A stretch of 32,000 nt of DNA from Halogeometricum borinquense DSM 11551 (GCF_000172995.2 NC_014736.1:90001-122000); one strand, 5' to 3'; shown: positions 3,108 through 25,274, counted from the first letter of the stretch. The notes: a model not told the origin generated them from the sequence alone. Program-made: numbers and translations.

Positions 3108-3379
3108 CGATCCACCGTGCCACCAAATGTGTCAGGCAGAAATGGAAGCCTGATTCAATCGCGTGGTGAACCGGTTATGATCTCGTGGTTGCGTTCGAGT
3201 GGGAGATATCGGGGAGGAGTCACAGAGGTCACCGCAGGGTTGAGAATACACAGATAACTCTGCGAGTTGTCTTCATTTCTGGTATCAGACCCACCTCTAG
3301 ATATTTAAATTAATTAAGTAAGTGATAAGATTTATAACCATACAGTTAGTAGATTGACATCGTTGGAGTCAGAAAACAG

Positions 3380-5104
3380 ATGAGTGAATATCAGTCTCCA
3401 GGCGTTTATGTCGAAGAGGTCCAGAGCGGAAGCAAATCCGTCGAAGGAGTCAGCACTAGTACTGCTGGCTTCCTCGGCCAGACCGAACGCGGCCCGGTCG
3501 AACCCCGCCTTGTCACGAATTACGCCGATTTCGAGCGGCTCTACGGTGCGAGCCCGAAGTCCTCCGATCTTGATGCCGCTGTTGACGGGTTCTTCAAAAA
3601 CGGCGGTAGCCGCTGTTTCATCGGACGCGTCAGTGGTGCCGATATCGACGACGTAGCGACTGGCATCCTCGCAGACGACGAGGGCAACGAAATCGCCGAA
3701 GTCGAGGCCAACGGTCCCGGCCAGTGGGGCGAATCCGTCGCCGTCATCGTCGAAGACAGTCAGTACCCCAACCAGTTCGACATCACCGTTCGCTACTGGT
3801 CCGGCGACCTCGAAGCAGTCAGCAAGCCGCACGGCGACCGACCCGACCCGTCGCCTGACGTCGAAGAGGTCTACGACGGCCTGTCGGCTGATCCTGAGGC
3901 AAGCAACTTCTACGAGAAGCAACTCGAAAGCTCGGTTCTCGTGGACATCGAGTACAAAGACGACGGCACGCCCGTTGACGGCCTGACCTGGCTGCACCGC
4001 GACAGCCACCCCACCGCGTACTCCGACGGTGGTCTCGTCGAAACCGACGAAGAAGAGACGGTCGTTCACATCCCCGAGGACCTCGACGAACTCGAGCAGG
4101 AGAGCCTCGAAGGCATCGCCGAGCCTCTCGAAATCGAAATCGACGAGGACGCCGACAAAGACGACCTCGTCGTCGAACTCGAAGAGGTCCGCGAAGGCGA
4201 ACGAGACGTCGACGTCGAAATCGTCACCGAGAAGCCAGAGGCAGACGGCGAAGTCACCCTCAAAGACTACGAAGGTGTCAACAAGCCCGGTCTCCGAACC
4301 GGTCTCGCCGGCTTCAAAGCGATCGACGAAATTTCGATGGTCTGCGCGCCGGACGAGAACGACATCGACGGTCTGACTGACTCGATTGTCGCACACTGTG
4401 AGAACATGGGCGACCGCTTTGCGATTCTGCAGTCGCCGCAGAACCCCGGTCCGGTCTCCGAGATGGAGACGCCGGTCGATTCCTCGTACGCGGCATACTA
4501 CTACCCGTGGGTCAACGTGCTCGACCCCGTCACGAACCGAGAGAAACTCGTCCCGCCGGGCGGCCACATCGCCGGTATCTACTCGCGGACCGACCAGGAA
4601 CACGGTGTCCACAAAGCGCCCGCTAACGAGACGCTTCGCGGCATCGTCGGCCTCCAGCACAACATCACGAAGGGTGAGCAGGACGTCCTGAACCCGAAGG
4701 GTATCAACTGCATCCGCAGCTTCCAGGGCCGCGGTATCCGCGTGTGGGGTGCTCGTACCACGTCGTCTGATCCCGAGTGGAAGTACCTCAACGTTCGCCG
4801 CCTGTTCCTGTTCATCGAGCAGTCGATCCAGGAAGGCACGCAGTGGGCGGTCTTCGAGCCGAACGAGCAGGACACCTGGGGTCGGATCCGACAGTCTGTC
4901 ACCAACTTCCTCCGCACGGTCTGGCGGAACGGTGGCCTCCAGGGTCAAAGCGAAGACGATGCGTTCTACGTGAAGTGTGGCGAAGAGACGATGTCCGAGG
5001 ACGACATCGACAACGGACGCCTCATCGTCGAAATCGGTGTTGCGCCGGTCAAGCCCGCCGAGTTCGTTATCTTCCGCATCAGCCAGGATACCGAACAGGC
5101 ATAA
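3380..5104 (+). CDS. Contractile tail sheath protein (phage/eCIS sheath family, Afp2-4 / Cis2-like)
   Basis: 574 aa. The N-terminus MSEYQSPGVYVEEV is classic for sheath proteins. The C-terminal domain is also typical: INCIRSFQGRGIRVWGARTTSSDPEWKYLNVRRLFLFIEQSI...WAVFEPN...FYVKCGEETM...DIDNGRLIVEIGVAPVKPAEFVIFRISQ. It is followed directly by tube genes. Confidence 0.95.
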   Translation: MSEYQSPGVYVEEVQSGSKSVEGVSTSTAGFLGQTERGPVEPRLVTNYADFERLYGASPKSSDLDAAVDGFFKNGGSRCFIGRVSGADIDDVATGILADDEGNEIAEVEANGPGQWGESVAVIVEDSQYPNQFDITVRYWSGDLEAVSKPHGDRPDPSPDVEEVYDGLSADPEASNFYEKQLESSVLVDIEYKDDGTPVDGLTWLHRDSHPTAYSDGGLVETDEEETVVHIPEDLDELEQESLEGIAEPLEIEIDEDADKDDLVVELEEVREGERDVDVEIVTEKPEADGEVTLKDYEGVNKPGLRTGLAGFKAIDEISMVCAPDENDIDGLTDSIVAHCENMGDRFAILQSPQNPGPVSEMETPVDSSYAAYYYPWVNVLDPVTNREKLVPPGGHIAGIYSRTDQEHGVHKAPANETLRGIVGLQHNITKGEQDVLNPKGINCIRSFQGRGIRVWGARTTSSDPEWKYLNVRRLFLFIEQSIQEGTQWAVFEPNEQDTWGRIRQSVTNFLRTVWRNGGLQGQSEDDAFYVKCGEETMSEDDIDNGRLIVEIGVAPVKPAEFVIFRISQDTEQA

Positions 5105-5153
5105 CCGCTCACACAGAACCAGCTAACTAACCACTACGATAACGGAATACACA

Positions 5154-5603
5154 ATGTCCAAAGCATCACAACCCATCTCAAACACTCAATTCGACGTCGA
5201 ACTCGACGGGACGAACATCCCGGGCGTCGTCGAAGTCAAGCTCCCTGAGAAGAACGTCCAAACGCACAACTACCGAGAGGGTACCGACATCGCCTCCGGG
5301 ACGAAGCACCTGGGCGAAGTCACGTACACCAAACTCGAGTTCGCACGAAGTGCGGACAAAAAGAACTCAGCCCTCGACGACTGGCTCAAAGCAGCCGAGG
5401 AAGGCCGCGAAAACGATGCGAAAAAGCAGATCGCGGTTCTGCTCAAGGACCGAACCGGCCAGACGGTCGCTCGCTACAACATGGAAGGGGCGATGGTCAT
5501 CCAGTACAGCCCCCCGAACCTCAACGCGACCCCTGGTGGCGACCAGATCGCTGTTGAGACCTTCGTCGTCGACTTCGACACGATGCAAGTCGACCGCTCC
5601 TAA
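5154..5603 (+). CDS. CIS/phage tail tube protein (T4 gp19-like, Afp1-like)
   Basis: 149 aa, immediately after the sheath gene. It shows the pattern FDVELDG...IPGVVEV...YREG...G....Y..LEF.R......L..W and a C-terminal IAVETFVVDF strand, all typical of the PF06841 tube family. Confidence 0.88.
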   Translation: MSKASQPISNTQFDVELDGTNIPGVVEVKLPEKNVQTHNYREGTDIASGTKHLGEVTYTKLEFARSADKKNSALDDWLKAAEEGRENDAKKQIAVLLKDRTGQTVARYNMEGAMVIQYSPPNLNATPGGDQIAVETFVVDFDTMQVDRS

Positions 5604-5755
5604 TGAGCCAATCCACCACCGACCCGACGGACGGCTACGCTGTTGACAGATACCGCGAGGAGTGTCACCTCGACAATGAGGGATACCTCCACACCGGGAC
5701 CGCGTCGGCACACGTCAACAGAATAATTATCAAGACGGAAGAACAACGCCGGTAA
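5603..5755 (+). CDS. Candidate 50-codon small ORF that exactly fills the gap between the tube gene and the next gene
   Basis: Below the ORF-track size cutoff. Its ATG overlaps the tube gene stop (TAATG at 5601-5605) and its TAA at 5753-5755 lies 3 nt before the next ATG (5759). Translation: MSQSTTDPTDGYAVDRYREECHLDNEGYLHTGTASAHVNRIIIKTEEQRR. By my count about 72% of third codon positions are G/C, similar to the neighbouring genes. Confidence 0.4.
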   Translation: MSQSTTDPTDGYAVDRYREECHLDNEGYLHTGTASAHVNRIIIKTEEQRR

Positions 5756-5758
5756 CGA

Positions 5759-6295
5759 ATGACGAATCAGACGCTCCAGACCGAATTCGAGTTCACCCTA
5801 CCGAAGGGGTACGTTGACGACGAGGGGACCCTCCACAAAGAGGGCCGAATGCGGCTTGCGACCGCCGCAGACGAGATTCAACCGCTGAACAACCCACGCG
5901 TTCAGTCAAACTCGTCGTATCTGACGATAGTGCTGCTCGCGCGGACGGTCACGGAGCTTGGCTCGCTCGATACCGTTGACGAAAGTATCATCCAGAACCT
6001 CTTCGTCTCGGATCTCGAGTACTTGCAGGCGATGTACGAGCGCGTCAACAACAGCGGTCTGAACGCGGTCGATACCGCCTGCCCAGAATGCGGTGAACCG
6101 TTCACCGTCGAAGTCGAAACCGGCGCACACGTCACCGGCGGGGCCAACGACGAGATGGCGTCGATGGATTCGGAATCCCCTGTCGATGATACAGACACCC
6201 AGTTCCGCGACATCTCGACGGTGTCTGACACGCCAGAAGACGCAGTCGAACCCGCCTCGGAGGAGGAAGCCGACACGGGAAATCCAGCCGAATGA
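5759..6295 (+). CDS. Putative CIS tail-assembly protein (conserved position between the two tube genes) with an acidic disordered C-terminal tail
   Basis: 178 aa. It begins FEFTLPKGYVDDEGTLHKEGRMRLATAADEI and carries a single CPECGEPF knuckle, followed by a D/E-rich tail. The position between tube genes matches the unnamed assembly or chaperone-like genes of bacterial eCIS loci. This is an assignment by context, not by a recognised motif. Confidence 0.65.
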   Translation: MTNQTLQTEFEFTLPKGYVDDEGTLHKEGRMRLATAADEIQPLNNPRVQSNSSYLTIVLLARTVTELGSLDTVDESIIQNLFVSDLEYLQAMYERVNNSGLNAVDTACPECGEPFTVEVETGAHVTGGANDEMASMDSESPVDDTDTQFRDISTVSDTPEDAVEPASEEEADTGNPAE

Positions 6296-6561
6296 TCCAT
6301 CTCCACGACCCTGACGTGTTGTTCGAGGAAGTCGCCTTCGTGGCCTACCACTTCGGTTGGAGCCGCGACGAGGTGCTGGGGATGTCCCACTGGGAACGTC
6401 AGCGGTGGTGCGAGGAGATCAGCGACATCAACGAAGAGATGAACGCGAACGGAGACACCGCCCCAGGGCGCCAATCCCAACAGCAAGGCGCGAACTTCCT
6501 CGATACCGAGGGCGGCGGAAAGGTACTCTCGAAGTCGCTTGACGAACTACGCGACGAGTAA
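6292..6561 (+). CDS. Small CIS-associated protein of unknown function, translationally coupled to the preceding gene
   Basis: 89 aa. ATGA start/stop overlap at 6292-6295. The sequence VAFVAYHFGWSRDEVLGMSHWERQRWCEEISDINEE resembles the small conserved ORF found at this position in eCIS loci; this is from recollection and is unverified. Confidence 0.6.
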   Translation: MIHLHDPDVLFEEVAFVAYHFGWSRDEVLGMSHWERQRWCEEISDINEEMNANGDTAPGRQSQQQGANFLDTEGGGKVLSKSLDELRDE

Positions 6562-6585
6562 TCGCCACGAGCAACGGACACAACC

Positions 6586-7050
6586 ATGGCTGATAGCGCA
6601 AACACATCCAACAACAGCCCCTACGGACAGTACAACTTCGAGGTCGTGATCGACGGCGAGTCCGTCGCCGGCTTCTCGGAAGTCTCCGGAATCGCAATGC
6701 AGTTAGAGACCGTCTCGTACCAGGAAGGTGGCGTTGACGAGTACGTCCACCAACTCCCTGATCAGTTCGCACATGCGAACTTGGTCCTGCAACGAGGGTT
6801 GACGGACGACGTCACCTTCTGGGAGTGGATACAGGACGTGATGAGCGGCAACGTGACAAGAAAGAACGTGACGGTGAAAGTCCAAGAGAGTCACATGGGA
6901 CCGAACACGTGGGGCTGGCAGTTCCTCGGCGCGTACCCGACTACGTGGCGTGGTCCCGACCTCATCGGTGGCCGACAAGGCGGTGTCGCCATCGAGACCA
7001 TCGAACTCGCGTACAAGAAGTTCAACAAACTGTCCGGCGCGCCCAAGTAA
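6586..7050 (+). CDS. Second CIS/phage tail tube paralogue (T4 gp19-like, Afp5-like)
   Basis: 154 aa. YNFEVVIDGESVAGFSEVSGI...VSYQEGG...LPDQ..H.NLVLQRGL..D..FWEWI...VAIETIELAY is the canonical PF06841-type tube signature. Confidence 0.9.
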   Translation: MADSANTSNNSPYGQYNFEVVIDGESVAGFSEVSGIAMQLETVSYQEGGVDEYVHQLPDQFAHANLVLQRGLTDDVTFWEWIQDVMSGNVTRKNVTVKVQESHMGPNTWGWQFLGAYPTTWRGPDLIGGRQGGVAIETIELAYKKFNKLSGAPK

Positions 7051-7062
7051 GCCCGAAGGCGA

Positions 7063-7659
7063 TCACTCGCTATCGGGGTTTCGTTCTACACCGACATCAC
7101 GTTCGGCGATACGCGAGAATTCTGCTTCGTTGATCGACTGAATCATCACCGGCGACACTTCAACCGTAACTGACGGTTGATATGTGGCGTCGAACCGTGC
7201 CCAAAGAGAGAACACTTCGTCGAGCGGCGCATTCGTAATTGTGAGTCCGATTCGAGTATCCTGCTCGATTCCCTCAGTCTCTTCAGGTTCGAGTATGCCG
7301 ACGTCGTTGAGTGTCTGGAGGACGAGCCCAAGTGCCTGTTGTTGGCCGATAGTACCGGTGACGTTGTCTTCGTCATCTCTCGGATAGGCCGTCACCAGAT
7401 AGTCGATTGTAATCGGCAGCGGCGGGTCTCGTTTGGCCGACTCTCCGACCGGCGTCGTGTTCATCGATCCAACTGAACCGTCTTTCCGGACGCGATAGGG
7501 GTAGAACCCGATTCGAACAGTCGAGTTCGGGCCGATATCCGCCGGAGAAATCAGTTCGATCTCATCGGGTTCGACAGGAAGTTCCGGATAGTCGGCAGTC
7601 TCCTTGAGTAGGTCAACGAGCGCTTCGCTCACGTATCGAATTGCTTCGTAGGTCATCAA
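7063..7659 (-). CDS. DUF4255 / Pvc16-Afp16-like tail terminator (cap) protein
   Basis: 198 aa. It has the typical DUF4255 layout: N-terminal I..VSEALVDLL..., then RIGFYPYRVRKDG, PLPITIDYLVTAY, QQQALGLVLQTLND..IL, and C-terminal LDEVFSLWARFDATYQPSVTVEVSPV. Confidence 0.85.
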   Translation of the reverse strand: MMTYEAIRYVSEALVDLLKETADYPELPVEPDEIELISPADIGPNSTVRIGFYPYRVRKDGSVGSMNTTPVGESAKRDPPLPITIDYLVTAYPRDDEDNVTGTIGQQQALGLVLQTLNDVGILEPEETEGIEQDTRIGLTITNAPLDEVFSLWARFDATYQPSVTVEVSPVMIQSINEAEFSRIAERDVGVERNPDSE

Positions 7660-7750
7660 TCAAGCCCCTCGAGACGTGATTCTGAAATCGTCGGTTCGGT
7701 TATCCACATACGACGCCCGTTCGTGGACCGGCGGAAAAAGGATTCCGAGG

Positions 7751-9931
7751 TCAGCGTCGATTCCGCCGTCGGCCGTCAGGTTCCTGTGCTGGTTCGACGA
7801 GCGCCTCGTCGTATGGCTCGAACTCCGATTTCCGGACGACGCGACCGGCATCCCGGTAATCTCGTTCGAGTACGCGAACAGCGTGTTTCATCTGGATCGA
7901 CTCGTCGCCACAACTGGCGGCCTCGACGGCGATTCGTTTGGCCAACGAGGCGATTTCGCCCCCGCTGAAGTCGAACTGTGCGAGCCACTCGGCGTCGATA
8001 CCGTCTGTCGGAGTCTCGTCGGGGAACGCGGCCTCCCAAATTGCCTCTCGCGTCTCTTCTTGAGGGTTCTCGAACCGAACTGTGTGGTTGATACGTCGCG
8101 TGAACGCTTCGTCAATATTGGACGCGTAGTTCGTCGTCAGGAGGATGACGCCGTCATAGGTTTCGATGCGCTGGAGGAGGTAGTTCACTTCCGCGTTGGC
8201 GTATCGGTCCGTTGCGTCCGACACCTCAGCACGGTCACCGAACACCGAATCCGCTTCGTCGAACAGAAGAATCGCGTTCGACTGCTCGGCCGCTTGGAAG
8301 ATCTGTTCGAGGTTCTCCTCGGTCTCTCCGATGTACTTACTCACCACACTCGACAAGTCGATCTTGTAGATGTGCATGCCCACCTCGTTGGCGAGCGCCT
8401 CGGCGGCCATCGTCTTCCCAGTCCCGGGCTTCCCCTTGAATAGGGCGACCACGCCAGCGTTCTTCTCCTTGTCACGGAAGCCCCAGTCATCGTAGATTCG
8501 GCCTCGATTCGAGATGTGTGCCTGAAGCTGATCGAGTTTCTTATCAGTCCGCTCCCGGAGCATGACCTCCTCACGAGCGATGGTCGGTGTGATCTGCTGT
8601 GCGAGATCGGCTAACTGACTGGAAGACTGGGCTCGGCATCCTTTCCGAACGTGTTCGACGGTCAGTTCGTCGCCGCCCGCAAGCGTGTTTGCGGCCGCCA
8701 GCGCGGACTCCATCTGCCCCAAGGTCAGATCGAACGTGCTGGCCATGCGTTCCGGATCAAGGTCGTCGGGGAGGTCGTCGGCGTGCGCCTGCCAGAACTG
8801 CCGCCGCAGCGGGATGGTCGGCCGGTCGAATCCGACGAGTGCATCGACTGGTTGCTGACTGGTTCCAGCAGGCGTCCAAGACGATTCGCCGAGCAGGAAC
8901 ACGTCGCTCACCACGGGATCGAACCGGTCGATGACGGCCGACAGCGACCGATCCCCGTCCGCACTCGCGCTCGTTGCCTCGTCTGCACCAGTGACCACGA
9001 CCGGTCGTGCTTGGAGGGCGGCCTCCCGGACGACCATATCGAGGATACCGGCCTCGAGCACCGCAGGGAGATCAACTTGTAAGTACGCCTCTTCCTCACA
9101 AAGGGCTTCAGCGGCACGCTGCGGGCCGCTCCCTCGGGGACCATGGAAGTACAGGCGACGTCCCGACTCTTCGCTATCGCGGAGCGATGCGAGTGTCGAA
9201 TACGTGCCGTCCTCGATGAGTAAGTCATCGAGTGTGGCGTCGGCGGTCGTCTCGGTGAGGAATGCATCGACTGCGTCGGCACTTTGAACACTGGACGGTG
9301 TTCTCAGCCCGGGATCAACTGTGCCGTGACCAAGTAAAAATGCGTAGATGCGGTCATCGACTCGGATCGAATAATCGAGTTTCGAGCCAGTCTGTCTGGT
9401 CCCCTCGGGAGGGTCAAGGACGAGCAGGCTGTACTCATGCAACGGTGAACCCTGTCCGAACAGTTCAGTTGCAGTCAGAAACTCGTCGGGCGTCGTCGAG
9501 AAGAGGTCGGCGACGAGACGGACCGTCGGTCGCTGTTTGCTCGCATCGTTTTGCAGTTCGCTAAATAGTTCAGTACCGGCGGGATCAACGTCAGGAAAGA
9601 GTGCGAGTAACAGGGCATCGAGATGCTGTCTGGTGAGATCGAACGCGTCAGCGAGGGTTTGGAGACGCAGATCGACACCCGCTTCGGTAGCGGCCCGCCG
9701 CTTCTTCTCTATTCGTGTCCGATATCGTTCGAGGTCATCTCGTGCATGTTCGGGGACGACCAACTGAGTTGCCGATGGCGAAGCGTGCGACTCATTCGAT
9801 TGTAGTCGTTCGACCAACCCGAGTTGCGAGCGCGGAAGTTCCGCGTGACGATCACCGAGGAATTCGCGCAGGAGGTAATCGAGACACCCGAGTTCGTCCA
9901 GCAGATGATCTATCGTTCCCTCGTAACTCAT
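7751..9931 (-). CDS. CIS-associated AAA+ ATPase (Afp15/Cis15-like)
   Basis: 726 aa. It has Walker A GKPGTGKTMAAEALA, Walker B ILLFDEADSVFG, sensor/arginine-finger region VILLTTNYASNIDEAFTRR, and a long non-ATPase N-terminal domain. It lies directly upstream of the cap gene on the same strand. Confidence 0.95.
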   Translation of the reverse strand: MSYEGTIDHLLDELGCLDYLLREFLGDRHAELPRSQLGLVERLQSNESHASPSATQLVVPEHARDDLERYRTRIEKKRRAATEAGVDLRLQTLADAFDLTRQHLDALLLALFPDVDPAGTELFSELQNDASKQRPTVRLVADLFSTTPDEFLTATELFGQGSPLHEYSLLVLDPPEGTRQTGSKLDYSIRVDDRIYAFLLGHGTVDPGLRTPSSVQSADAVDAFLTETTADATLDDLLIEDGTYSTLASLRDSEESGRRLYFHGPRGSGPQRAAEALCEEEAYLQVDLPAVLEAGILDMVVREAALQARPVVVTGADEATSASADGDRSLSAVIDRFDPVVSDVFLLGESSWTPAGTSQQPVDALVGFDRPTIPLRRQFWQAHADDLPDDLDPERMASTFDLTLGQMESALAAANTLAGGDELTVEHVRKGCRAQSSSQLADLAQQITPTIAREEVMLRERTDKKLDQLQAHISNRGRIYDDWGFRDKEKNAGVVALFKGKPGTGKTMAAEALANEVGMHIYKIDLSSVVSKYIGETEENLEQIFQAAEQSNAILLFDEADSVFGDRAEVSDATDRYANAEVNYLLQRIETYDGVILLTTNYASNIDEAFTRRINHTVRFENPQEETREAIWEAAFPDETPTDGIDAEWLAQFDFSGGEIASLAKRIAVEAASCGDESIQMKHAVRVLERDYRDAGRVVRKSEFEPYDEALVEPAQEPDGRRRNRR

Positions 9932-10015: not shown

Positions 10016-11344
10016 ATGGCTATCAAGTTTGCAGTAAGAATGAGATTTCGGTCTGCGAACGAGCGGACGACTCCGAGCAAAGAGTCCTCGTCCGTTCCGT
10101 CTATTCAAGAGCTGACGGGAGGCTCGAATCGAAATCAGAGTCGTGGTGGTGGTTCGCTAACACCCCAAGAGTGTGAATCTCGCTTCGGGGTAGAGATCTA
10201 CATGGACGGGCTGGATACGAAGATTCAGCGACTAGCCAAGAAACACGGCGCAGATCAAGTTCGGCAGTGGGCCGACGAAGGCATGACCGTCGATACGATG
10301 GGCAAGCCACGCGACATGCGCGCGTTCCGCCAGCGCCAGAAAGAACGGCCCGCGGAAGTCCCGAAAGACATCGAACGCCGGAACGCTAAATCCGTCCAAC
10401 GCAGTCGCGGCGCGCATCACGAAGCAAGCAAGGCTGGTGACGCGAACGTGCCCGACTCAGTGCGAGACGTGATTTCCTCGCCCGGCCAGCAACTCGACAC
10501 GAGCATCCAGCGCGCGATGGAAGATCGGATGGGCGACAATCTGGGCGATGTACGCGTCCACACGGGTCCATCGGCCGCGAAAGCGTGTGAAGACATCAAC
10601 GCCCGCGCGTTTACCGTCGGCAATCACATCGCGTTCAACCACGGCGAATACGATCCGAGTTCGGCGGAAGGCCAGCATATTCTCGCCCACGAGTTAGCGC
10701 ACGTGCGCCAACAAACCGGTGGCGCGGTGTCGATGCTCCCCCAAGAGGGTTCGTTAGAAATTGATCCTGACCCACGCTTAGAGCGGGAAGCCGAAGAAAC
10801 CGCCCAGCGCGTGATGCAAGGCGGAAAGATTGGCGTGCATCGCATGGAGCACTCCGACGTGCACGTTCAGCGGACGCCCGCAGAGGTAAGCGTCGAGAAC
10901 AACTACGCAGGAATTCGAGAACTCAAAGAGGAAGTTTCGGAGCTCAAGGAAAAGGTGAATTCGGGATGGTCGGAGAAAGTGGCAGGTGGCATGGCAGCCG
11001 TGGGATCGAGTGCCGCAGTCGCTGGGACTCGGGCCGCTCTCGAATCAGACCTCGCTCAAACCATTGAGGGGGGTGAAACGCTATCGAAGATGATCCCCCA
11101 CGCTGGTGAAATAATGGCTCACCATCCCGAAGTGACGGCTGCGGTTGGACTGACCGCAGTCGCAAGCGGAGGCCTCTACGGGGCGCAGCAGGCTGTCGAT
11201 GGCTCCGGAATATTTGACCGCATCGGCGATGGCGTTAAGAGTGCCTTCGGCCACGTGAAGAGCAAATTCAGTCGCAAAGACGAATCCGAGCGTGAGGAAG
11301 AAGAAAGAGAGGAGGACAGTGGTTGGTTCTCAGGACTAAACTAA
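10016..11344 (+). CDS. Full-length DUF4157-domain (HExxH, zincin-like) CIS effector candidate with a coiled-coil plus Gly/Ala-rich hydrophobic C-terminal module
   Basis: DUF4157 signature: LDTSIQRAMEDRMGDNLGDVRVHTGPSAAKACEDINARAFTVGNHIAFNHGEYDPSSAEGQHILAHELAHVRQQ. The track ORF starts at 9824 but overlaps the ATPase gene, so I chose the first ATG after the promoter (10016). The ATG at 10202 is an alternative, because third-position GC rises only after about 10200. Confidence 0.85.
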   Translation: MAIKFAVRMRFRSANERTTPSKESSSVPSIQELTGGSNRNQSRGGGSLTPQECESRFGVEIYMDGLDTKIQRLAKKHGADQVRQWADEGMTVDTMGKPRDMRAFRQRQKERPAEVPKDIERRNAKSVQRSRGAHHEASKAGDANVPDSVRDVISSPGQQLDTSIQRAMEDRMGDNLGDVRVHTGPSAAKACEDINARAFTVGNHIAFNHGEYDPSSAEGQHILAHELAHVRQQTGGAVSMLPQEGSLEIDPDPRLEREAEETAQRVMQGGKIGVHRMEHSDVHVQRTPAEVSVENNYAGIRELKEEVSELKEKVNSGWSEKVAGGMAAVGSSAAVAGTRAALESDLAQTIEGGETLSKMIPHAGEIMAHHPEVTAAVGLTAVASGGLYGAQQAVDGSGIFDRIGDGVKSAFGHVKSKFSRKDESEREEEEREEDSGWFSGLN

Positions 11345-11351
11345 ATTATCA

Positions 11352-12287
11352 ATGAATGGAAATATAATCGGCGAAGACGAAAAAGGGGTGGCACTGTTCG
11401 TGGAGGATAATAGTGGCAACGAGCATGAAATCGGAGTAAACTCTGAAGGAGATATATTCCACCATGCAGATAATGTTATCCCAGACAACCCCTCTGAACG
11501 AAGTGATAAGGAAGATGAAACCTTCTCGCAAGTCCGCCGGTTCGCCCGCTATCACGTCTACCGCGAGAAAGGATACGATACCATCCCCACAGACGAGAAT
11601 CCAGACCGAATCGCTGCGGTCTTGCTGGCCATTATAGACCTCGACGACGAGGAGTTCGAGAACCGCTTCAAACCACTGTACAAGCAGGTCATGAGCCATG
11701 AGCGTCCGGACGTGGAGCCGTCACTGGACCTTCCAGATTCGGTCTACCACGGAGGAGAACCCTGCTACAAGCAGAATATCTACCTCGAAGAGAGCTTGGA
11801 GGAAATGAAAAGTACAGTGAGCGAACAACTGGTCGAGAGTATCGGCCAAGAGCAGATTACGGAAGTACTCCAAGCGGATAGCGGTGATTTCTTCTCAAGA
11901 GCAGCGTCGTTGTTCGGCGGCCCGAACGGCAACTACGGGGGCCTCACTATCGACGGAATCTCCGGAATCGACACGGTACATCTCGTGGACGGGAAGGAAC
12001 AGACCATCAAGAGTGATGACCCCTTCGAGCGCGGGCCTGACGCTCGTCTGGAGTTATACCCCTCGAATTTCGACTTTGAGGCCTTCCGGTTCTACATCGG
12101 ATACAACCTCATCTGCCAAATCAGAGATTGCTTCATCGGCATGGGTGTCGAACCACCAGCACAGTATCGGGTTCTCGGCCCCGGTAAGGACAAGTACACC
12201 GGCAAATACCACGCGTTCGACTTCTATCCCGAATACCACAATCCCGGGGCGACCATTCCGGGCTACATCCGTCCAGCCCCGATATAA
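11352..12287 (+). CDS. Effector-linked partner protein 1 (uncharacterised family; candidate immunity, chaperone or adaptor)
   Basis: 311 aa. It starts 7 nt after the effector stop. It is a paralogue of 13216-14178 and 639-1637, sharing RFARYHVYREKGYDT, NPDRIAAVLLA, YKQN.YLEESL and ICQIRDCFIGMGVEPPAQYR.LG.GK.KY..KY..FDFYP.Y. Confidence 0.85.
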   Translation: MNGNIIGEDEKGVALFVEDNSGNEHEIGVNSEGDIFHHADNVIPDNPSERSDKEDETFSQVRRFARYHVYREKGYDTIPTDENPDRIAAVLLAIIDLDDEEFENRFKPLYKQVMSHERPDVEPSLDLPDSVYHGGEPCYKQNIYLEESLEEMKSTVSEQLVESIGQEQITEVLQADSGDFFSRAASLFGGPNGNYGGLTIDGISGIDTVHLVDGKEQTIKSDDPFERGPDARLELYPSNFDFEAFRFYIGYNLICQIRDCFIGMGVEPPAQYRVLGPGKDKYTGKYHAFDFYPEYHNPGATIPGYIRPAPI

Positions 12288-12372
12288 CTTGAACTCTCCC
12301 CTCAGTTACATCGGATACTCTTGAACACGAAACGATGAAGCAACGTCGCAGAGATGATTAGGAGGGCATCTA

Positions 12373-13212
12373 TTGACCCACGAACTCGCACACGTCCGCC
12401 AACAAACTGGTGGCGCGGTGTCGATGCTTCCCCAAGAGGGTTCGTTAGAAATCGATCCCGATCCGCGCTTAGAACGGGAAGCCGAAGAAACCGCTCAGCA
12501 GGTCATGTCGGACGGACCGGTCGTGCTTAGTCGGATGGGAATGGACGTTCACATCCAGCGGGCGGCAAGCGGATATCACGGAACTCGGCGGGCTACCAAA
12601 GAGGACTGGCAGACGCCCGGGACGAGCGAGTCAGCACACGAAACGCTGTCGGCCGACGAACTCTCAAAGCGAGTTGCCGAACTCGAACAGCAGGTTCAGG
12701 CCAACGAAAAACGCGCTAAGCAGAACAACGAAGGCCTATCCAACGTTCAAGAGGAGCTCAATACGAAAATTGAGGAGAACACGAAAACGCTGGAGAACCA
12801 TGCCGAACAGCTTGGCACTACCAACGAGAAACTGAGCGATCTCAAAAGCGAGGTAGACAGTGGGATCGGAGAGACAGTAGCGGGAGTCATCGGTGGAGGT
12901 ATCGGCACTGGGATAACAGCCCTAGGTCGGGCAGCGACAACCGACACTATACAACAAGGAATCGAAAACGGGAATGCTGTCCTTGACACGCTGGGACCGA
13001 TTGGTGACGCGATGGCCGCGCATCCGGAAATGGCAGCCACTGCGAGTGCAGCCACTATGATGGCATTCACTGTCAGCGCGGCAGGCATTGGTTCCAAAAA
13101 ACTATTCGAGCAAATCAAAGAGCGCTTCTTCGGAGACAAAACCGACGAAGACGAACGGCGCGAGGAAGATCAGACAGACGAAGAAGATGACAGTGTTCTT
13201 GGTATTTTCTAA
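12373..13212 (+). CDS. 5'-truncated orphan DUF4157 effector module that begins at the HExxH motif and carries a diverged C-terminal module
   Basis: The frame opens after the stop at 12355-12357. The only start is TTG at 12373, preceded by GGAGG (12361-12365). The product begins (M)THELAHVRQQTGGAVSMLPQEGSLEIDPDPRLEREAEETAQ, identical in protein to residues of the full-length copy. It then diverges into a coiled coil, GGGIGTGITALG, AAHPEMAA and an acidic tail. Confidence 0.7.
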   Translation: MTHELAHVRQQTGGAVSMLPQEGSLEIDPDPRLEREAEETAQQVMSDGPVVLSRMGMDVHIQRAASGYHGTRRATKEDWQTPGTSESAHETLSADELSKRVAELEQQVQANEKRAKQNNEGLSNVQEELNTKIEENTKTLENHAEQLGTTNEKLSDLKSEVDSGIGETVAGVIGGGIGTGITALGRAATTDTIQQGIENGNAVLDTLGPIGDAMAAHPEMAATASAATMMAFTVSAAGIGSKKLFEQIKERFFGDKTDEDERREEDQTDEEDDSVLGIF

Positions 13213-13215
13213 GAT

Positions 13216-14178
13216 ATGAAAGGAGAGATTGAGGGAATTACAGATGATGGTATCGGCGTGAGAGTTATTGATAAAAATGGTTTCGAGCATAAAATCGAGA
13301 TGCTCTTTGATGGAGAGATAGTTTATCATCATCAGAAGGGCTATCCAGATAACCCGAAGGAGCGCACAAACGAAGAGGACGAAAGCGTTGCCCAAGCCCG
13401 CCGGTTCGCCCGCTATCACGTCTACCGCGAGAAAGGATACGACACGGTTCCAAACCCGGACAACCCCGACCGGATTGCGGCAGTCTTGCTAGCCCTTATC
13501 GGACTGGACGATCAGCAGTTCGACCAGTACTTCGGGATGCTGTACGAGCAGATGGCGAGTCACGAGCGAGCGGACGTGGCTCCCGTATTGGACCTCCCGC
13601 AGGAGGTGTATTCTGAAGAATTCATCGTCTACAAACAGAACGTCTACCTCGAAGAGAGTCTCGACGCTATGCAGGACCAACTCACACAACCGGCAACCGA
13701 GGTTTTCGGGGAGGAGAACCTTCAGGAATTCCTCCAAGAGACCGGGGACGGTCTAGTGGCAAAGGCTCGCTCGTTGGTCGGCGGAGGGACAGACGAGGAT
13801 GAAGATGCGTCCGAGGAACCATCCATCCCCGAAGCAGATCTGTCAATCGCGGACGTGTCGGGACTCGACACGATGTACAGTACGCCAGAGGGATACAAGA
13901 CCATCGAGGGCGAGGACCCGGTCAGTCGTGAGCCAGACGCTCGCATCGAGACGCTCCCGATGGGATACACTCGTGAGCAGTTCCGGTACCACGTGGGTCA
14001 CAATCTGATCTGCCAGATTCGGGATTGCTTCATCAGTATGGGTGTCGAACCGCCAGCCCAGTATCGGCTCTTAGGCCACGGGAAATTCAAGTACTCCGCG
14101 AAGTACCGCGACTTCGACTTTTACCCCGACTACTGGGACTACGAGGCCAACATCCCTGGATACAGCTCCCCAGTATAA
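13216..14178 (+). CDS. Effector-linked partner protein 2 (paralogue of 11352-12287)
   Basis: 320 aa. It starts 3 nt after the orphan effector stop. It has the same motif set as partner 1; the middle region is more acidic and divergent. Confidence 0.85.
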   Translation: MKGEIEGITDDGIGVRVIDKNGFEHKIEMLFDGEIVYHHQKGYPDNPKERTNEEDESVAQARRFARYHVYREKGYDTVPNPDNPDRIAAVLLALIGLDDQQFDQYFGMLYEQMASHERADVAPVLDLPQEVYSEEFIVYKQNVYLEESLDAMQDQLTQPATEVFGEENLQEFLQETGDGLVAKARSLVGGGTDEDEDASEEPSIPEADLSIADVSGLDTMYSTPEGYKTIEGEDPVSREPDARIETLPMGYTREQFRYHVGHNLICQIRDCFISMGVEPPAQYRLLGHGKFKYSAKYRDFDFYPDYWDYEANIPGYSSPV

Positions 14179-14320
14179 CCTTCAAGAAGGTCAGTCCGTT
14201 TTCTACAGCGAACTCCCAGGTAGAACCAATATGCGTCGAGAGCGCAACAACACATCCCAGCCGACGACAACGAGAGTGATTCTGCTGGTACCTATAAAAC
14301 CGAATCAAAATCCCTGGATT

Positions 14321-14798
14321 CGCGAGTTAGCGCACGTGCGCCAGCAAACGGGTAGTGAGGTGTCGATGCCTCCTCAAGATGAGTTGGTGATTGGGCCGAC
14401 CAACGCTTAGAGTGCGGACTGAAGAAGCCGCCCGGCAAGATACCACGGAACTCAACGGGCTACCAAAGAAGACTGGCAGACGCCCGGAGAGTGAAGCGAC
14501 ACGCGAAACGCTGTCGGGTGACGAACTCCCAAAGCGGGTTGTCGAACTCGAACAGGTGCAAGGCAACGAAAAACGCGCCAAACAGAACAACAAAGGGCTG
14601 TCCAACGTCCAACAGGACCTCTGTTCAGCGACGCTGGGGCTGCGACTGATGATGAAGCTGATGCGCAGCGTGAGCGAAATCAGACCGATGGTGCATCGAC
14701 TACCTTCTGGTGATTTCGATGGAAGCAACCACTGTCAGAAGACGAAGTCGATGCAAGTGTCAAGATCACTTTGGACGAGTGAAATGTCTCGACAGTAA
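14321..14798 (+). pseudogene. Eroded third cassette: DUF4157-junction/effector remnant with stops, frameshifts and an internal deletion, plus a stub of a partner-gene 5' end
   Basis: 14323 onward reads ELAHVRQQTGSEVSMPPQDELVIGPTNA*. Shifted frames then give YHGTQRATKEDWQTPGE* and ESEATRETLSGDELPKRVVELEQVQGNEKRAKQNNKGLSNVQQDL, matching 12570-12750 of the orphan copy. An acidic tail-like FSDAGAATDDEADAQRERNQTDGASTTFW* follows (stop at 14711-14713). Five nt later there is an ATG (14719), and a shifted frame reads SEDEVDASVKITLDE, resembling the partner N-termini GEDEKGVALFVEDN. Confidence 0.7.
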
Positions 14799-14814
14799 TT
14801 ACAAGTAGCTCTCA

Positions 14815-15970: not shown

Positions 15971-16897
15971 TCAGTCCATGACTGCAGTAAAGACATCTTC
16001 GAGAGACTGGGTCTCCGTCTCGAAGTCCACTACCTCTATGCCGGCCTCAGACAGCGCGATTACGACGTCAGAACGAACGTCAGTCCGAGAGCATTTGACA
16101 CAGATATCTGACTCACTGATCCAAGCGTCCGTAACACCGTCGATCATCTCAACCGTCTCTGGGACACGCTCAGGCGTCGAATTAACGTTTATCCTTATTG
16201 TTGGACCCTCGTTCGCCTGTCCGAGAAGCTCTTCCATCTGCGCTTCCCTAACCAAGCTCCCGTCTTTTATGATTTCGACCCGGTCGCAAACCGCTTGCAC
16301 GTGCCCCAGTTGATGCGAGGAGAAAAAGACTGTCGCTCCCTTCGTGTTCTCCTCCTCAATTATCTCTTTGACCCGGGCGGCACCCAACGGATCAAGGCCC
16401 GCAATCGGCTCATCGAGGATGAGCAAATCCGGGTCTCCAACTAGTGCCATCGCAAGTCCAAGTCGTCGAGTCATACCACGTGAGTATCCTCCAGCCTTCT
16501 GCTCGGCGTCATCGGCAAGTCCAACCCGTTCAAGATAACCGAGGGGCTCGTCTTCATTATGGAGCTGGCAGGCCAACTCCACGTGGCGCAGTCCGGATAA
16601 CTTCGGATATGGCGTGAATCCTTCTGAGAGGATTCCTGTTCGGTTCTTGATTGTGAGTTCGTCCGTCTGAGGGTCATGACCAAACACTCGAACCCGTCCG
16701 CTGGAGGGCCTGAGGAAGTTCACCAACATCCCAATCGTAGTCGTCTTTCCCGCTCCATTCGGCCCGAGAAATCCGTATATCTCACCACGGGAAACGCGCA
16801 TGTCTAACTCGTTCACTGCGGTAACATCTCCGAACGTTCTGGTCACGTCTGTGAGCCTAATCGCAGCGCTATCTGTCGTCGGCGTTGTCTCAGTCAT
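15971..16897 (-). CDS. ABC transporter ATP-binding protein (ABC-2/DrrA-like subfamily)
   Basis: 308 aa. Walker A GPNGAGKTTT, signature-like YSRGMTRRLGLAMAL, Walker B LLILDEPIAGLDP, H-loop FFSSHQL. Confidence 0.93.
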   Translation of the reverse strand: MTETTPTTDSAAIRLTDVTRTFGDVTAVNELDMRVSRGEIYGFLGPNGAGKTTTIGMLVNFLRPSSGRVRVFGHDPQTDELTIKNRTGILSEGFTPYPKLSGLRHVELACQLHNEDEPLGYLERVGLADDAEQKAGGYSRGMTRRLGLAMALVGDPDLLILDEPIAGLDPLGAARVKEIIEEENTKGATVFFSSHQLGHVQAVCDRVEIIKDGSLVREAQMEELLGQANEGPTIRINVNSTPERVPETVEMIDGVTDAWISESDICVKCSRTDVRSDVVIALSEAGIEVVDFETETQSLEDVFTAVMD

Positions 16898-16899
16898 GG

Positions 16900-17865
16900 T
16901 TATTGATCAACCTCCATCCCTTCGATTCGCTTCCAAGCGTATAGTAGTGGACACACAATCCAGAGCAAAAGCACCAAACCAGCAATTGGCCACGAGAAGT
17001 ACACTGGCGGGTCCAGCGATACCATCCCGGTTGACATAAAGCCCTGTCCAAAGCTATCGACTTGTCCAACAGCGATCTGATATAATTTCGGGATCATTTC
17101 TTCGTGGGGCGCAGCAACGAGGACGAGATACGCTTGAGTGGGATCTAAAATCATCCCCGATGGGAATACTCCGACGAGACCGAGAATATACGATTGCAAA
17201 CCGACGAAAACGTTGACAATCACAAAAGTAACGACCATCGATACTCGCCGAGCCGTAGAGAACGAAACAGAGAGCGCAATCCCGATACTCAGCCACGCGA
17301 GTCCGTAGGCTACCGTCGAAGCTGAAAACGCGAGATAGCTCCAGACCGATGCAGTCTCGAAGTTATTTGTGATTCCAATCCAGCCGACGGCCAACGCCAC
17401 AACTAACGCCAACACGAAAACGGCGATTCGACCGAGAGACATCCCGAGTAGAATTTCCTGACGCGAACAGGGCAGCGATAACATCGTCCGTATCTGTCCC
17501 TTCGTTCGGAGATTAACAATCGTCGCGTAGCCGAGCAGCAACCCGACTATCGGAATGAGAAATACGAACGAGTGAAAGTGCCAAGTGGTGTCAACAAACC
17601 CGAAGATAGCGTAGACGGCATCAACCGTCTCGGGTTTGGTGAGAATCATATAGTATGAGCTCCTCGTAGCTGCAGTCCCATCCAAAACGTCCACGTCCGT
17701 CCCGATACGCCAAGATGAGAACATCAAAAACGCAAACAGGACGAGCACTGATTTCGATTTGAACAGACGACGGCCCTCCAAGCGCGCCAAGGCACTCATT
17801 GTCCGCTTGCGTATCGCTGTCTCGCCAATTAATACCCATTCTCTACTAGTGTTGTCAGACATCAT
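16900..17865 (-). CDS. ABC-2 family permease
   Basis: Multi-TM protein with the ABC-2 motif region NLRTKGQIRTMLSLPCSRQEILLGMSLGR. The track start at 17922 overlaps the upstream gene by 61 nt. I prefer the ATG at 17865-17863, which forms an ATGA overlap with the upstream stop. The gene ends 2 nt before the ATPase start. Confidence 0.8.
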   Translation of the reverse strand: MMSDNTSREWVLIGETAIRKRTMSALARLEGRRLFKSKSVLVLFAFLMFSSWRIGTDVDVLDGTAATRSSYYMILTKPETVDAVYAIFGFVDTTWHFHSFVFLIPIVGLLLGYATIVNLRTKGQIRTMLSLPCSRQEILLGMSLGRIAVFVLALVVALAVGWIGITNNFETASVWSYLAFSASTVAYGLAWLSIGIALSVSFSTARRVSMVVTFVIVNVFVGLQSYILGLVGVFPSGMILDPTQAYLVLVAAPHEEMIPKLYQIAVGQVDSFGQGFMSTGMVSLDPPVYFSWPIAGLVLLLWIVCPLLYAWKRIEGMEVDQ

Positions 17866-18716
17866 TCGAACACCTCGTTCCGAAACTGGAGGAAGCCGAC
17901 GGCGGTTGGAAGGATAATCCAACCCAGAACGACAACGGCAGCCAAAGGAAGTGAGAGCAGTTGTGGTGGCAAAAATGCGAGTGGTGAGTACATACCGTCA
18001 AATAGCGAGATCAAGAAACGCGAGTACGCCTGCAAAGGGTGAACGATAATGAGCCAAGACTTCTGCGACAAGAGTAAAACGGGGGTGAAGAGTAACGCAA
18101 AACCTCCTCCAATGACTCCGATAAGTCCCTGATTCCGCGTCGAAACAAGGGCAGAGAGGGCAATTGCTGGGGAGAGTAGTGCGATCCCGTATCCGATAGT
18201 GAGCGTGCCCGCAACGAGGAAAGAGCCGGCACCAAACTTCGATCCCGTTAGCAGCAGTCCAATTCCACCGACGGCAACCCCGATACAGATCATGGAAGCA
18301 AAGGCGGCTATTCGTGTAATCACCTTGCTGAGATAGATATCACGACGAGTCACCGGAAGCGACCCGAGACACGAGAGGTTTCCTCGTTCGCGGTCGTCGA
18401 TGAGTACTCCATACCCGAACAAAAACGCTAGAAACGGGAGCACGAGAGAAGCGAGGTCTACTACCTGAAACCAGAAGCGACTCGCTACGGTGTGCCCTGA
18501 GTCAAGCACGAGAACCGGTAAGAAAACCTTGGATGATGTCTCTGCAGTGACTGACGACACAACTGCAAGGACCATAACGCCAACAACGCAAAGTGCGATG
18601 ATCCAACTCAGCAAAGAACGAGCGAGCAACGCACCCTCGACTCGGATGAGAGCAAATAGCCGTCGCCGAAACGGTAAAGCTCTCGGGGGAGTGTTACTGG
18701 TATGCTCAGCGTGCAT
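17862..18716 (-). CDS. ABC-2 family permease
   Basis: 284 aa with about 6 predicted TM segments and the motif DDRERGNLSCLGSLPVTRRDIYLSKV. It is the first gene of a permease-permease-ATPase operon. Confidence 0.8.
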   Translation of the reverse strand: MHAEHTSNTPPRALPFRRRLFALIRVEGALLARSLLSWIIALCVVGVMVLAVVSSVTAETSSKVFLPVLVLDSGHTVASRFWFQVVDLASLVLPFLAFLFGYGVLIDDRERGNLSCLGSLPVTRRDIYLSKVITRIAAFASMICIGVAVGGIGLLLTGSKFGAGSFLVAGTLTIGYGIALLSPAIALSALVSTRNQGLIGVIGGGFALLFTPVLLLSQKSWLIIVHPLQAYSRFLISLFDGMYSPLAFLPPQLLSLPLAAVVVLGWIILPTAVGFLQFRNEVFE

Positions 18717-20283: not shown

Positions 20284-21558
20284 TTGCCAGGGTATAATAT
20301 TGTATTATATGAACGAAAACAGCCTCAGAATCAGCCGGCGAGCAGTTCTTCGAACAGCTACAACGATGGGTATAGAACCGGTATAGTCGGAACGAACACA
20401 GCGACCAATGCCCCATCTGGTGTCAAGCAATATATCGTCCTTGCGGGTGAGCCTGGTCTCCGTGATCGACTTGAGAGTGCTAATTACGAAGTGTTGCATG
20501 AACTTGCTGCCGGTTCTATTTTTATCATTCAGGGACCGGAGGATATGGAGGGCGAGTTGGAATCGATTCCTGCTGTAAATAGCGCATTGTCAAACCAGAC
20601 TTACACTATTGAAACATCTGAACTACAGGCAGACAAAAGCATAGGTGATGCTACTACCGACTCACTGACTAACCAGCAGTATGCGATGAAAGGAACTCGT
20701 GCGTTCGAAGCGCACGATATTACGACCGGTAGCGGAATCATAGTTGCAGTGGTCGATACAGGGATTGATCATACGCATCCAGATCTCGAATCTCAACTCG
20801 ATCAAAAGCAGAGTCGGCTGTTCCGCAACAGTACCGTTCTTACTGGGACTGAGAAGATCAATGTTCCTACCGAGCTAGAGCCGGTAGAGCGTTTCGTTGC
20901 GACTGATATAGAGGGACACAGCACTCAAGTCGCCGGTATTGTCGCTGCATCGCAAAACGAAACAGGAATCGTTGGCGTCGCTCCCGATGCTAAGATCATT
21001 TCGCTTAGACCGTTCTTTTTCGACGAACTAGTAGGTGATATTCTTAGTTTGACTAGCACGTTTGCTGATCTTTTGGTCGCGATTGATTACGCCATTGATA
21101 TCGGTGTTGATGTTGTGAATGTTAGTTTAACAGTAGGAGATCCAGATCCAGGAAGTATATCACGGCGACGGGTGTATGCTGCACTCAATCGAATCATTGT
21201 ACATGCAATCGAGAATGGAACAACCGTCGTCGCTGCAATGGGCAACGATGGAATCAAACGATTTCTCCGGATATATCCTTCCTACCAGTAATCCAGAAAC
21301 GATAAGCGTTGCAGCATCCAACAGATCGGATGAACTTACCGAACAGTCCAACTTTGGAAACAGTACTGTAACTGTTGCTGCTCCCGGCAATCAAATCCTC
21401 TCACTAGCCCCAGACAGACTTTTCGAGGATCAGTATTCTCGCAGTTCTGGGACATCAGTAGCAGCACCACAAGTTACAGGGATTGTATGTTTGCTTCGCG
21501 AACTTGATTCTGAACTCCATCACCGGTCAATTAAACAATTGATCAAAAAGGGCGCAGT
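20284..21558 (+). pseudogene. Halolysin-like subtilisin (peptidase S8) gene, 5' portion: Tat signal in a different frame, one more internal frameshift, then cut by an IS insertion
   Basis: Catalytic motifs are VAVVDTGIDHTHPDL (Asp), EGHSTQVAGIVAA (His), AAMGNDG (oxyanion Asn) and SGTSVAAPQVTGIV (Ser, in the frame of ORF 21176-21601). The ATG at 20309 in another frame gives MNENSLRISRRAVLRTATTMGIEPV* (Tat signal), implying a frameshift near 20375-20385. A second frame change lies near 21250-21265 (GNDGIK / SNDFSGYILPTSNPETISVAASN). Confidence 0.85.
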
Positions 21559-21610
21559 GGCTCTGTTGAAATCCTTAGTAAGCTACATTTCCAGTCGGTA
21601 GTTTGAGTAG

Positions 21611-25269: not shown

Positions 25270-25274
25270 TCTGC

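Follow-up and report, generated by a model that had tools for sequence, protein, structure and literature searches.

A membrane-anchored contractile injection system (CIS) that resembles a type VI secretion system (T6SS) has been described on plasmid pHBOR03 of Halogeometricum borinquense DSM 11551 (Zachs et al. 2024, Sci Adv, PMC11566945). Secretion of five DUF4157 proteins, Hbor_38900 among them, needs the intact sheath gene of this system. Attempts to transform Haloferax volcanii with Hbor_38900 alone failed, and transformation succeeded when the downstream gene Hbor_38910 was supplied as well; expression of Hbor_38910 was detected at 35.1 kDa. Rescue by co-expression was also reported for Hbor_38740/38750. 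The downstream partners were named immunity proteins, and six toxin-immunity pairs were counted. Neither Hbor_38910 nor Hbor_38800 is among the CIS-dependent secreted proteins, and Hbor_38800, listed as 'interspacing gene 9', was non-toxic when expressed alone (PMC11566945). Herein, a window of 32,000 nucleotides of H. borinquense DSM 11551 (NC_014736.1:90001-122000) was analyzed. The window is the T6SS-like CIS locus of plasmid pHBOR03, and the subject is a set of three paralogous genes within it, all of which belong to the protein family DUF7958.

DUF4157 is acknowledged as a polymorphic-toxin signature, archaea included (Zhang et al. 2012, as cited in PMC6393860). The DUF4157 toxins and their DUF7958 partners resemble the CdiA-CT/CdiI and Rhs-CT/RhsI systems, in which a conserved trunk and junction are followed by a variable C-terminus (CT) and a cognate immunity gene lies directly downstream. 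The likeness extends to 5'-truncated orphan cassettes that keep the junction, and to the co-diversification of the CT and the immunity protein. Unlike in the CdiA and Rhs systems, delivery here is by an archaeal membrane-anchored CIS. DUF7958 also differs in being unrelated, in sequence and in predicted fold, to any solved immunity protein searched, and in being exclusively haloarchaeal among all matches that carry an organism name.

The text and supplement of PMC11566945 do not recognize the partners as one protein family and give no mechanism or structure for them. The orphan cassette at 12373-14178 and its decayed successor are not mentioned there and lie outside the six named pairs, and Hbor_38800 is not singled out as a conserved cluster gene. 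No paper of the searched literature mentions DUF7958, and none of them describes the family as a whole, its fold, its division into two lineages, or the orphan array.

We consider it highly probable that the cassette-linked DUF7958 proteins (lineage A, which includes paralogues 1 and 2) are the cognate immunity proteins of DUF4157 polymorphic toxins delivered by the T6SS-like CIS. The genes that carry this finding are the following.

11352-12287, plus strand: paralogue 1, Hbor_38910, DUF7958 lineage A; 311 amino acids (aa), 35.1 kDa, isoelectric point (pI) 4.5, no hydrophobic segment.
13216-14178, plus strand: paralogue 2, C499_00650, presumably Hbor_38930, DUF7958 lineage A; 320 aa, identical to P0025.
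639-1637, minus strand: paralogue 3, Hbor_38800, DUF7958 lineage B; 332 aa, no toxin upstream.
10016-11344, plus strand: Hbor_38900, DUF4157/eCIS_core polymorphic toxin; 442 aa, eCIS_core E=1.2e-31.
12373-13212, plus strand: orphan toxin C-terminal cassette; starts inside DUF4157 at (L/M)THELAHVRQQ, with the junction kept.
14310-14800, plus strand: decayed third orphan cassette; junction remnant ELAHVRQQTGSEVSMPPQ, followed by stops and frameshifts in the three-frame translation.

The gene identities were set by exact matching of the Table S4 primers of PMC11566945 to the window, so that paralogue 1, the gene upstream of it, and paralogue 3 could all be placed on the published locus. The reverse primer of Hbor_38910 matches exactly at 12265-12284, which identifies paralogue 1 as Hbor_38910, and the computed mass of 35.1 kDa equals the value given for Hbor_38910 in that paper. 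The Hbor_38900 primers match exactly at 10016-10033 and 11325-11344, which identifies the gene at 10016-11344 on the plus strand. Similarly, the Hbor_38800 primers match exactly at 1618-1637 and 642-661 and identify paralogue 3, on the minus strand, as Hbor_38800. The initial annotation, made from the sequence alone, had held a chaperone or adaptor, a co-effector, and a regulator to be equally possible roles for the three proteins and had noted that they are larger than typical immunity proteins. For paralogue 1 this is contradicted by the published co-expression rescue of Hbor_38900 by Hbor_38910: the toxin-immunity function of this protein was already known and had been tested experimentally. 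Among the three paralogues, neutralization of a toxin on co-expression is published for the pair of paralogue 1 only. A role other than immunity may now apply to paralogue 3 only.

The three proteins were aligned end to end. Paralogue 2 is 51% and paralogue 3 is 30% identical to paralogue 1, and 57 columns are invariant. The motifs RFA.Y, PDR.A, CQ.RDC, MGV.PP, G.G, and Y, which had been noted in the three open reading frames (ORFs), are all among these invariant columns. Database searches with the paralogues gave 50 and 16 homologues, the lowest E-values being 1e-199 and 1e-214, and a family profile found 193 clusters at 50% identity among 1.84 billion representatives. DUF7958 is therefore a small, real family restricted to haloarchaea, with a similarity far beyond chance. 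All 66 homologues carry the precomputed Pfam annotation PF25858 (DUF7958), as do the genes of the window itself in the whole-genome shotgun (WGS) record; membership rests on this precomputed annotation and on our own hidden Markov model of the family. Scans of the three paralogues against Pfam-A (in a copy without the PF25858 model), NCBIfam, and PADLOC found no family, and the empty Pfam-A scan is explained by the missing model. A TonB Plug match in these scans (E=0.018) was below threshold and was dismissed as noise. The earlier statement that the proteins match no named family thus stands in part: the family has a name, and no characterized relatives were found by sequence or fold search.

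Both plus-strand paralogues lie directly downstream of a toxin ORF and in the same orientation, with gaps of 7 nt for paralogue 1 and 3 nt for paralogue 2; paralogue 3 does not. In Hbor_38900, an N-terminal region is followed by the DUF4157 core, the conserved junction, a coiled coil, Gly/Ala-rich hydrophobic helices, and an acidic tail. The mechanical ORF of this gene begins at TTG 9824 and overlaps by about 100 nt with the 5' end of the divergent AAA ATPase gene; the experimental start is ATG 10016, and the RefSeq form is shorter still, with 434 aa.

The gene upstream of paralogue 2 matches only positions 60-79 of the DUF4157 profile. This ORF starts inside DUF4157 and is therefore an orphan toxin-CT cassette. 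Its TTG start has a GGAGG 7 nt upstream. Across the 64-aa junction (HELAHVRQQTGGAVSMLPQEGSLEIDPDP...) it is 78% identical to Hbor_38900, and beyond the junction the identity is 28%, with a divergent C-terminus of the same class. At the DNA level the junction is visible as a direct repeat of 10675-10825 and 12366-12516 (83%), and a third copy is found at 14310-14379 (74%). The gene order indicates that paralogue 2 is the cognate partner of the orphan cassette at 12373-13212, as read from sequence. In other strains the orphan's C-terminus sits on longer proteins, namely P0213 (93% identical, 327 aa) and P0215 (58%, 452 aa). Weak matches of this C-terminus to MakB and alpha-xenorhabdolysin were far under the cut-off and within the coiled coil, and were not used.

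The remnant at 14310-14800 ends with a fragment that resembles the coiled coil of the second cassette. It has no partner gene behind it and is where the orphan array fades out. The array at 12373-14178, together with the remnant from 14310, is an orphan CT/immunity array of the kind expected for polymorphic-toxin immunity. Hbor_38760, the small toxic protein of PMC11566945, has the primer-encoded N-terminus MLPQTG, which resembles the junction motif SMLPQEG and hints that orphan C-termini may be toxic by themselves. None of the primers for Hbor_38720-38780 match strain wsp4, and the flanking primers for Hbor_38790, 38800, and 38900 do match. The toxin-immunity content of the 'interspacing region' thus differs between DSM 11551 and wsp4 (L077, 12200-18490). 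In wsp4, both eCIS_core genes of this region have a DUF7958 gene directly after them. Hbor_38750 is probably a DUF7958 member as well, judging from its primer-encoded N-terminus MKAKITG and the synteny in wsp4, and Hbor_38730 is probably another.

The linkage to DUF4157 toxins was then counted across haloarchaea. One genome per species was scanned, which yielded 74 loci from about 20 haloarchaeal genera with 150 DUF7958 ORFs, and the upstream neighbour could be evaluated for 127 of them. DUF7958 genes in these loci often stand in tandem arrays and often in many copies per genome. The upstream neighbours were distributed as follows.

ORF with full DUF4157 core: 74 genes.
ORF with 5'-truncated DUF4157: 17 genes.
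DUF4157 ORF cut by a contig end: 5 genes.
Toxin-C-terminus homologue without DUF4157 remnant: 22 genes.
None of these, lineage B: 3 genes.
None of these, unexplained: 6 genes.

Directly behind an ORF with a DUF4157 signal were 96 of the 127 genes, and 118 were directly behind either a DUF4157 toxin or an orphan toxin C-terminus. The intergenic distances from toxin to DUF7958 gene were mostly -4 to +6 nt, which suggests translational coupling. Structural CIS genes were found within 6 kb in only 9 of the 74 loci; DUF7958 is therefore linked to the toxin and not to the machine. The initial annotation had described the family as hard-wired to DUF4157 modules, and this is borne out both by the two plus-strand copies and by the genome-neighbourhood census of the homologues.

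The toxin C-termini in front of the partners are 208 aa long in the median; most include a hydrophobic stretch of about 20-45 aa, and they end in a tail that is polar or acidic. Homologues of the window toxin's C-terminus match Gly-zipper_Omp, Gly-zipper_YMGG, and C19orf12. GH-E nuclease or colicin-D domains are found instead in other DUF4157 proteins of haloarchaea, so DUF7958 appears to serve one toxin class among several. Glycine-zipper membrane toxins such as Tse4/Tsi4 and CdzC/D are known, and their known immunities are small membrane or periplasmic proteins. The C-termini associated with DUF7958 are like Tse4 and CdzC/D in their Gly-zipper-type hydrophobic helices, and some homologues match Gly-zipper_Omp and Gly-zipper_YMGG. 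Unlike the immunities of Tse4 and CdzC/D, DUF7958 proteins are 35-kDa, soluble, and acidic (pI 4.4-4.7), with no transmembrane (TM)-like segment.

Long hydrophobic helices of this type would need shielding in the cytoplasm, and DUF7958 could be a chaperone or loading adaptor which keeps the hydrophobic toxin C-terminus soluble and passes the toxin to the spike or to the Cis15 ATPase; the rescue would then be a by-product of sequestration. The Eag/DUF1795, DUF4123, and DUF2169 proteins of T6SSs are cytoplasmic partners of effectors with hydrophobic helices, and by analogy a shielding of the Gly-zipper region by DUF7958 is conceivable. The solubility of the partner, its size of 310-330 aa, which is large for an immunity protein, the fusions of DUF7958 domains to tetratricopeptide-repeat (TPR) or helical-repeat regions, which are typical protein-protein scaffolds, and the presence of lineage B as a conserved cluster gene without its own toxin all agree with such a role. 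The orphan cassettes speak for protection instead: the 22 CT-only and 17 5'-truncated toxin ORFs retain the partner despite the lost trunk, which is expected for protection and not for loading. Most cassettes also lie far from a CIS cluster, as counted above. The DUF7958 gene is unlike those of the T6SS chaperones in lying downstream and not upstream of the effector, in neutralizing toxicity, and in being retained with orphan C-termini. The rescue phenotype is hard to reconcile with loading, and the established T6SS chaperones are not known to confer such a phenotype. Membership in Eag/DUF1795, DUF4123, or DUF2169 was not found, since Pfam gave no match and a Foldseek search of PDB and BFVD gave nothing at E <0.1. 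Hbor_38910 is also absent from the list of CIS-dependent secreted proteins (PMC11566945). A chaperone function of lineage A is considered improbable.

Immunity further predicts that the partner follows the C-terminus of its toxin and not the trunk. In 71 non-redundant toxin-partner pairs, mean identity was 70% for the DUF4157 core, 29% for the toxin CT, and 39% for the partner. Partner identity correlated with toxin-CT identity (Pearson 0.75, Mantel p=0.001, Spearman 0.30), as opposed to r=0.11 with DUF4157 core identity. The partner thus co-diversifies with the toxin CT independently of the trunk.

The diversity within the partner is concentrated in the middle. Over residues 121-220 of lineage A, column identity falls to 0.14-0.26, versus 0.35-0.55 elsewhere; over residues 161-200 it is 0.14-0.15 in lineage A versus 0.36-0.46 in lineage B. 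The variable middle between conserved ends that had been noticed in the three paralogues is therefore a property of lineage A, and in lineage B the middle is conserved. The suggestion that the middle determines specificity is supported for lineage A: by column identity and by the segment-wise correlation with the toxin CT, it behaves as a specificity determinant would. Similarity over partner residues 51-311 correlates with toxin-CT similarity with r 0.57-0.64, and over residues 1-50 with r 0.15. A comparison of H. borinquense strains shows a swap of the first 50 residues on a partner that is otherwise near-identical, and the partner gene is therefore itself a mosaic. Paralogue 2 is near-identical to P0022 and P0030 of other H. 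borinquense strains from about RRFAR on and different before it, a pattern that points to recombination with a breakpoint at the conserved stretch RRFARYHVYRE. The variable middle segment is missing altogether from about 40 family members, which are 225-250 aa long.

The structure of paralogue 1 was predicted with AlphaFold2 from an alignment of 47 sequences. The model is a confident single domain (mean predicted local distance difference test score, pLDDT, 89.4; predicted template modelling score, pTM, 0.88). The N-terminal half comprises a four-strand beta-meander (residues 2-40), three helices (52-115), and a strand (138-145). It is followed by a helical insert of low confidence at about 150-190, a beta-sheet at 200-235, and a long helix at 242-263 with the CQIRDC motif, after which come Gly/Pro-rich loops. 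A Foldseek search with this model against PDB and BFVD found no match (best E about 0.2, template modelling score <=0.16), and the PDB sequences, searched with a profile, yielded nothing but a ribosomal protein at E=0.22. This agrees with the lack of characterized relatives, and the predicted fold appears to have no match in the libraries searched. In a single-chain fusion model of the second toxin CT and its immunity protein, paralogue 2 had the secondary structure of paralogue 1, and its pLDDT exceeded 92 except in the variable middle.

Conservation was measured over 271 non-redundant members. R258, D259, and G276 are invariant (100%), Q256 is kept in 98%, and G265, P268, P269, and G278 in 98-99%. 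H38 (96%), H25 (94%), D19 (93%), and C255 (92%) follow, and C260 is below 85%; the rest of the protein averages 36% column identity. The C-terminal block, which had been described as highly conserved and Cys-containing, is confirmed in its near-invariant Q256, R258, and D259, and the Cys pair in it is not invariant. A His2Cys2 zinc site was also considered. It is weakened by the lower conservation of the two Cys residues, both of which are missing in some members, and a Cys-based metal site is unlikely.

The near-perfect conservation of a few polar residues against this average would be expected if DUF7958 were an enzymatic immunity protein, one that modifies or processes the toxin or reverses its effect via D19/H25/H38 and Q256/R258/D259. 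The same polar residues are found in lineage B and in the helical-repeat fusions P0173 and P0189 ('LRCQQRDRC' and 'LTRQVRDRY'). However, the searches of Pfam, NCBIfam, PDB, and BFVD gave no similarity to any enzyme fold or family, the non-invariant Cys pair speaks against Cys-based metal chemistry, and the conserved residues may simply staple the beta-meander to the long helix. The strong cassette-specific co-diversification points to recognition by binding, and catalysis is regarded as very improbable.

Several observations weigh against immunity by binding as the function of lineage A. A protein that only binds would not usually have such near-invariant polar residues, and these could belong to a catalytic or ligand site. 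DUF7958 domains joined to TPR or helical-repeat regions are in some cases found away from toxin contexts. For a toxin presumed to be membrane-active, an immunity protein that is soluble and cytoplasmic is atypical. The published assay is a transformation rescue, which is neutralization in cis and not the protection of a recipient against a delivered toxin. The Spearman coefficient is much weaker than the Pearson coefficient, which means that the co-diversification signal comes mainly from closely related cassette pairs. The fusion model does not bear on this point: it had no alignment depth for the toxin part, the hydrophobic toxin region has pLDDT <50, and no interface can be read from it.

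The fusions themselves were found in two Halopiger-type genome records (L083 7001-10371 and L084 7001-12048), where proteins of 750-800 aa combine an N-terminal helical-repeat region of about 450 aa with a short-form DUF7958 part that lacks the variable middle. Each fusion is followed by a standalone DUF7958 gene and, in L084, also by a HEAT-repeat gene. The genes around them are housekeeping genes, and no DUF4157 toxin is among them. In P0123, DUF7958 is fused to TPRs. These fusions outside toxin contexts indicate that the DUF7958 domain is not confined to toxin cassettes.

If lineage A proteins are immunity proteins, the following mechanism can be proposed. The toxin would consist of the conserved DUF4157 trunk and junction followed by a variable C-terminus of about 200 aa, itself built of a coiled coil, a Gly-zipper-like hydrophobic hairpin that may target the membrane, and a polar or acidic tail. 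The partner gene would be translationally coupled directly downstream, and its soluble, acidic, cytoplasmic product would bind the C-terminus of its own toxin 1:1 and block its action. Specificity would reside mainly in the hypervariable helical middle (about residues 120-220), the likely main interface, and the invariant scaffold would be formed by the beta-meander at the N-terminus together with the C-terminal Q-x-R-D helix and its G..PP..G.G loops. New CT-plus-immunity cassettes would recombine onto the trunk via the conserved junction, and displaced cassettes would persist as orphan arrays, here at 12373-14178 and then as the decayed remnant.

Paralogue 3 belongs to a different part of the family and of the locus. 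The deepest split in the family separates 23 sequences, including paralogue 3 (lineage B), from 248 others. Mean identity is 47.5% among the 23, 36.5% among the 248, and 25% across the split. The genes next to paralogue 3, from 1860 to 9931, are the sheath-tube subcluster of the T6SS-like CIS, assigned by Pfam and NCBIfam matches except for the unnamed ORF.

1860-3107, plus strand: cis13 (CIS13 family, E=5e-174).
3380-5104, plus strand: sheath.
5154-5603, plus strand: tube.
5759-6295, plus strand: unnamed ORF of the sheath-tube subcluster.
6292-6561, plus strand: DUF6760.
6586-7050, plus strand: second tube.
7063-7659, minus strand: Pvc16_N.
7751-9931, minus strand: WHD-AAA ATPase.

Lineage B genes lie directly upstream of cis13 and divergent from it in all nine readable contexts, which cover five named genera and two metagenome contigs: H. 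borinquense DSM 11551 and wsp4, Haloferax elongans, Haloferax sp. S1W, Haloarcula sp. S1CR25-12, Natrinema sp. H-ect1, Natrialba sp. SSL1, and the two contigs. Presence and position in the haloarchaeal CIS cluster are thus conserved for lineage B. The conservation is not universal: in Halostella pelagica, the covered part of the cluster (L029) showed no lineage B gene at this place. Lineage B is never preceded by a toxin or CT-like ORF. Between Halogeometricum and Haloferax its proteins are 73-76% identical, and cis13 and sheath 87-92%. The middle of lineage B is as conserved as the rest of the protein, which indicates that its partner, whatever that is, is not in an arms race.

It is quite possible, if short of probable, that paralogue 3 and lineage B are ordinary immunity genes against a widespread conserved toxin that are kept beside the cluster. 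They have the same fold family and the same conserved scaffold as lineage A, they stand at the end of toxin-immunity arrays in Haloferax and Haloarcula, and Hbor_38800 is non-toxic with no other assigned role (PMC11566945). Arguing against it, besides the missing toxin upstream and the middle that is not hypervariable, is the strand, which is opposite to that of the arrays. The position by cis13 is also kept without any array in Natrinema sp. H-ect1, Natrialba sp. SSL1, and the two metagenome contigs, and the identity values given above show co-inheritance with the structural genes. Tentatively, and with rather low confidence, lineage B may be proposed as a conserved cytoplasmic T6SS accessory factor with a non-immunity role, for example as a loader or general receptor of DUF4157 toxins, or as a regulator. 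Lineage B has the same predicted fold as lineage A and is a single-copy gene tied to the CIS cluster.

Directly downstream of paralogue 3, on the same strand, lies Hbor_38790 (1-501, minus strand), a ParA/ArsA-like P-loop ATPase of 321 aa in the full record. Its primer places the gene start at 501 on the minus strand, and the gene continues past the left window edge. The pairing of Hbor_38790 and paralogue 3 is found in both H. borinquense strains and is absent from the Haloferax, Haloarcula, Natrinema, and Natrialba clusters.

Some further features of the window were recorded. A 50-aa ORF at 5603-5759 (plus strand), between the first tube gene and the ORF at 5759-6295, has no family assignment. 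A counterpart of 50-67 aa was called in every related CIS cluster inspected except L082, and the ORF may be a small conserved CIS component. Farther downstream, a subtilase (Peptidase_S8) is split into the overlapping ORFs 20284-21291 and 21176-21601 (plus strand), probably by a frameshift, and the ORF at 22120-22431 (plus strand) is a DDE_Tnp_1 transposase fragment according to the WGS record annotation. The GC content around 20284-22431 is 0.47-0.49 versus 0.55-0.61 in the CIS part of the window. The subtilase region is flanked by two ABC-2-type transporter modules, one at 15971-18716 (minus strand) with an ATPase and two permeases, and one at 23395-26174 with a fused double permease (plus strand) and an ATPase convergent to it.

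The immunity function of DUF4157 partners has been published, and the finding therefore opens no new kind of system. At the level of the family, DUF7958 is a marker of one major class of toxin-immunity cassettes of haloarchaeal T6SSs, orphan arrays included, and can be used to inventory toxin repertoires and to predict strain incompatibilities. The confident model without a library match, together with the mapped hypervariable region, makes the family a structural target for work on specificity. Hbor_38800, until now treated as a spacer gene, is a conserved component of the cluster. If lineage B is an accessory factor, the cassette immunity proteins would have arisen from it by duplication, or lineage B from them, and DUF7958 would be a new fold for both toxin handling and toxin neutralization.

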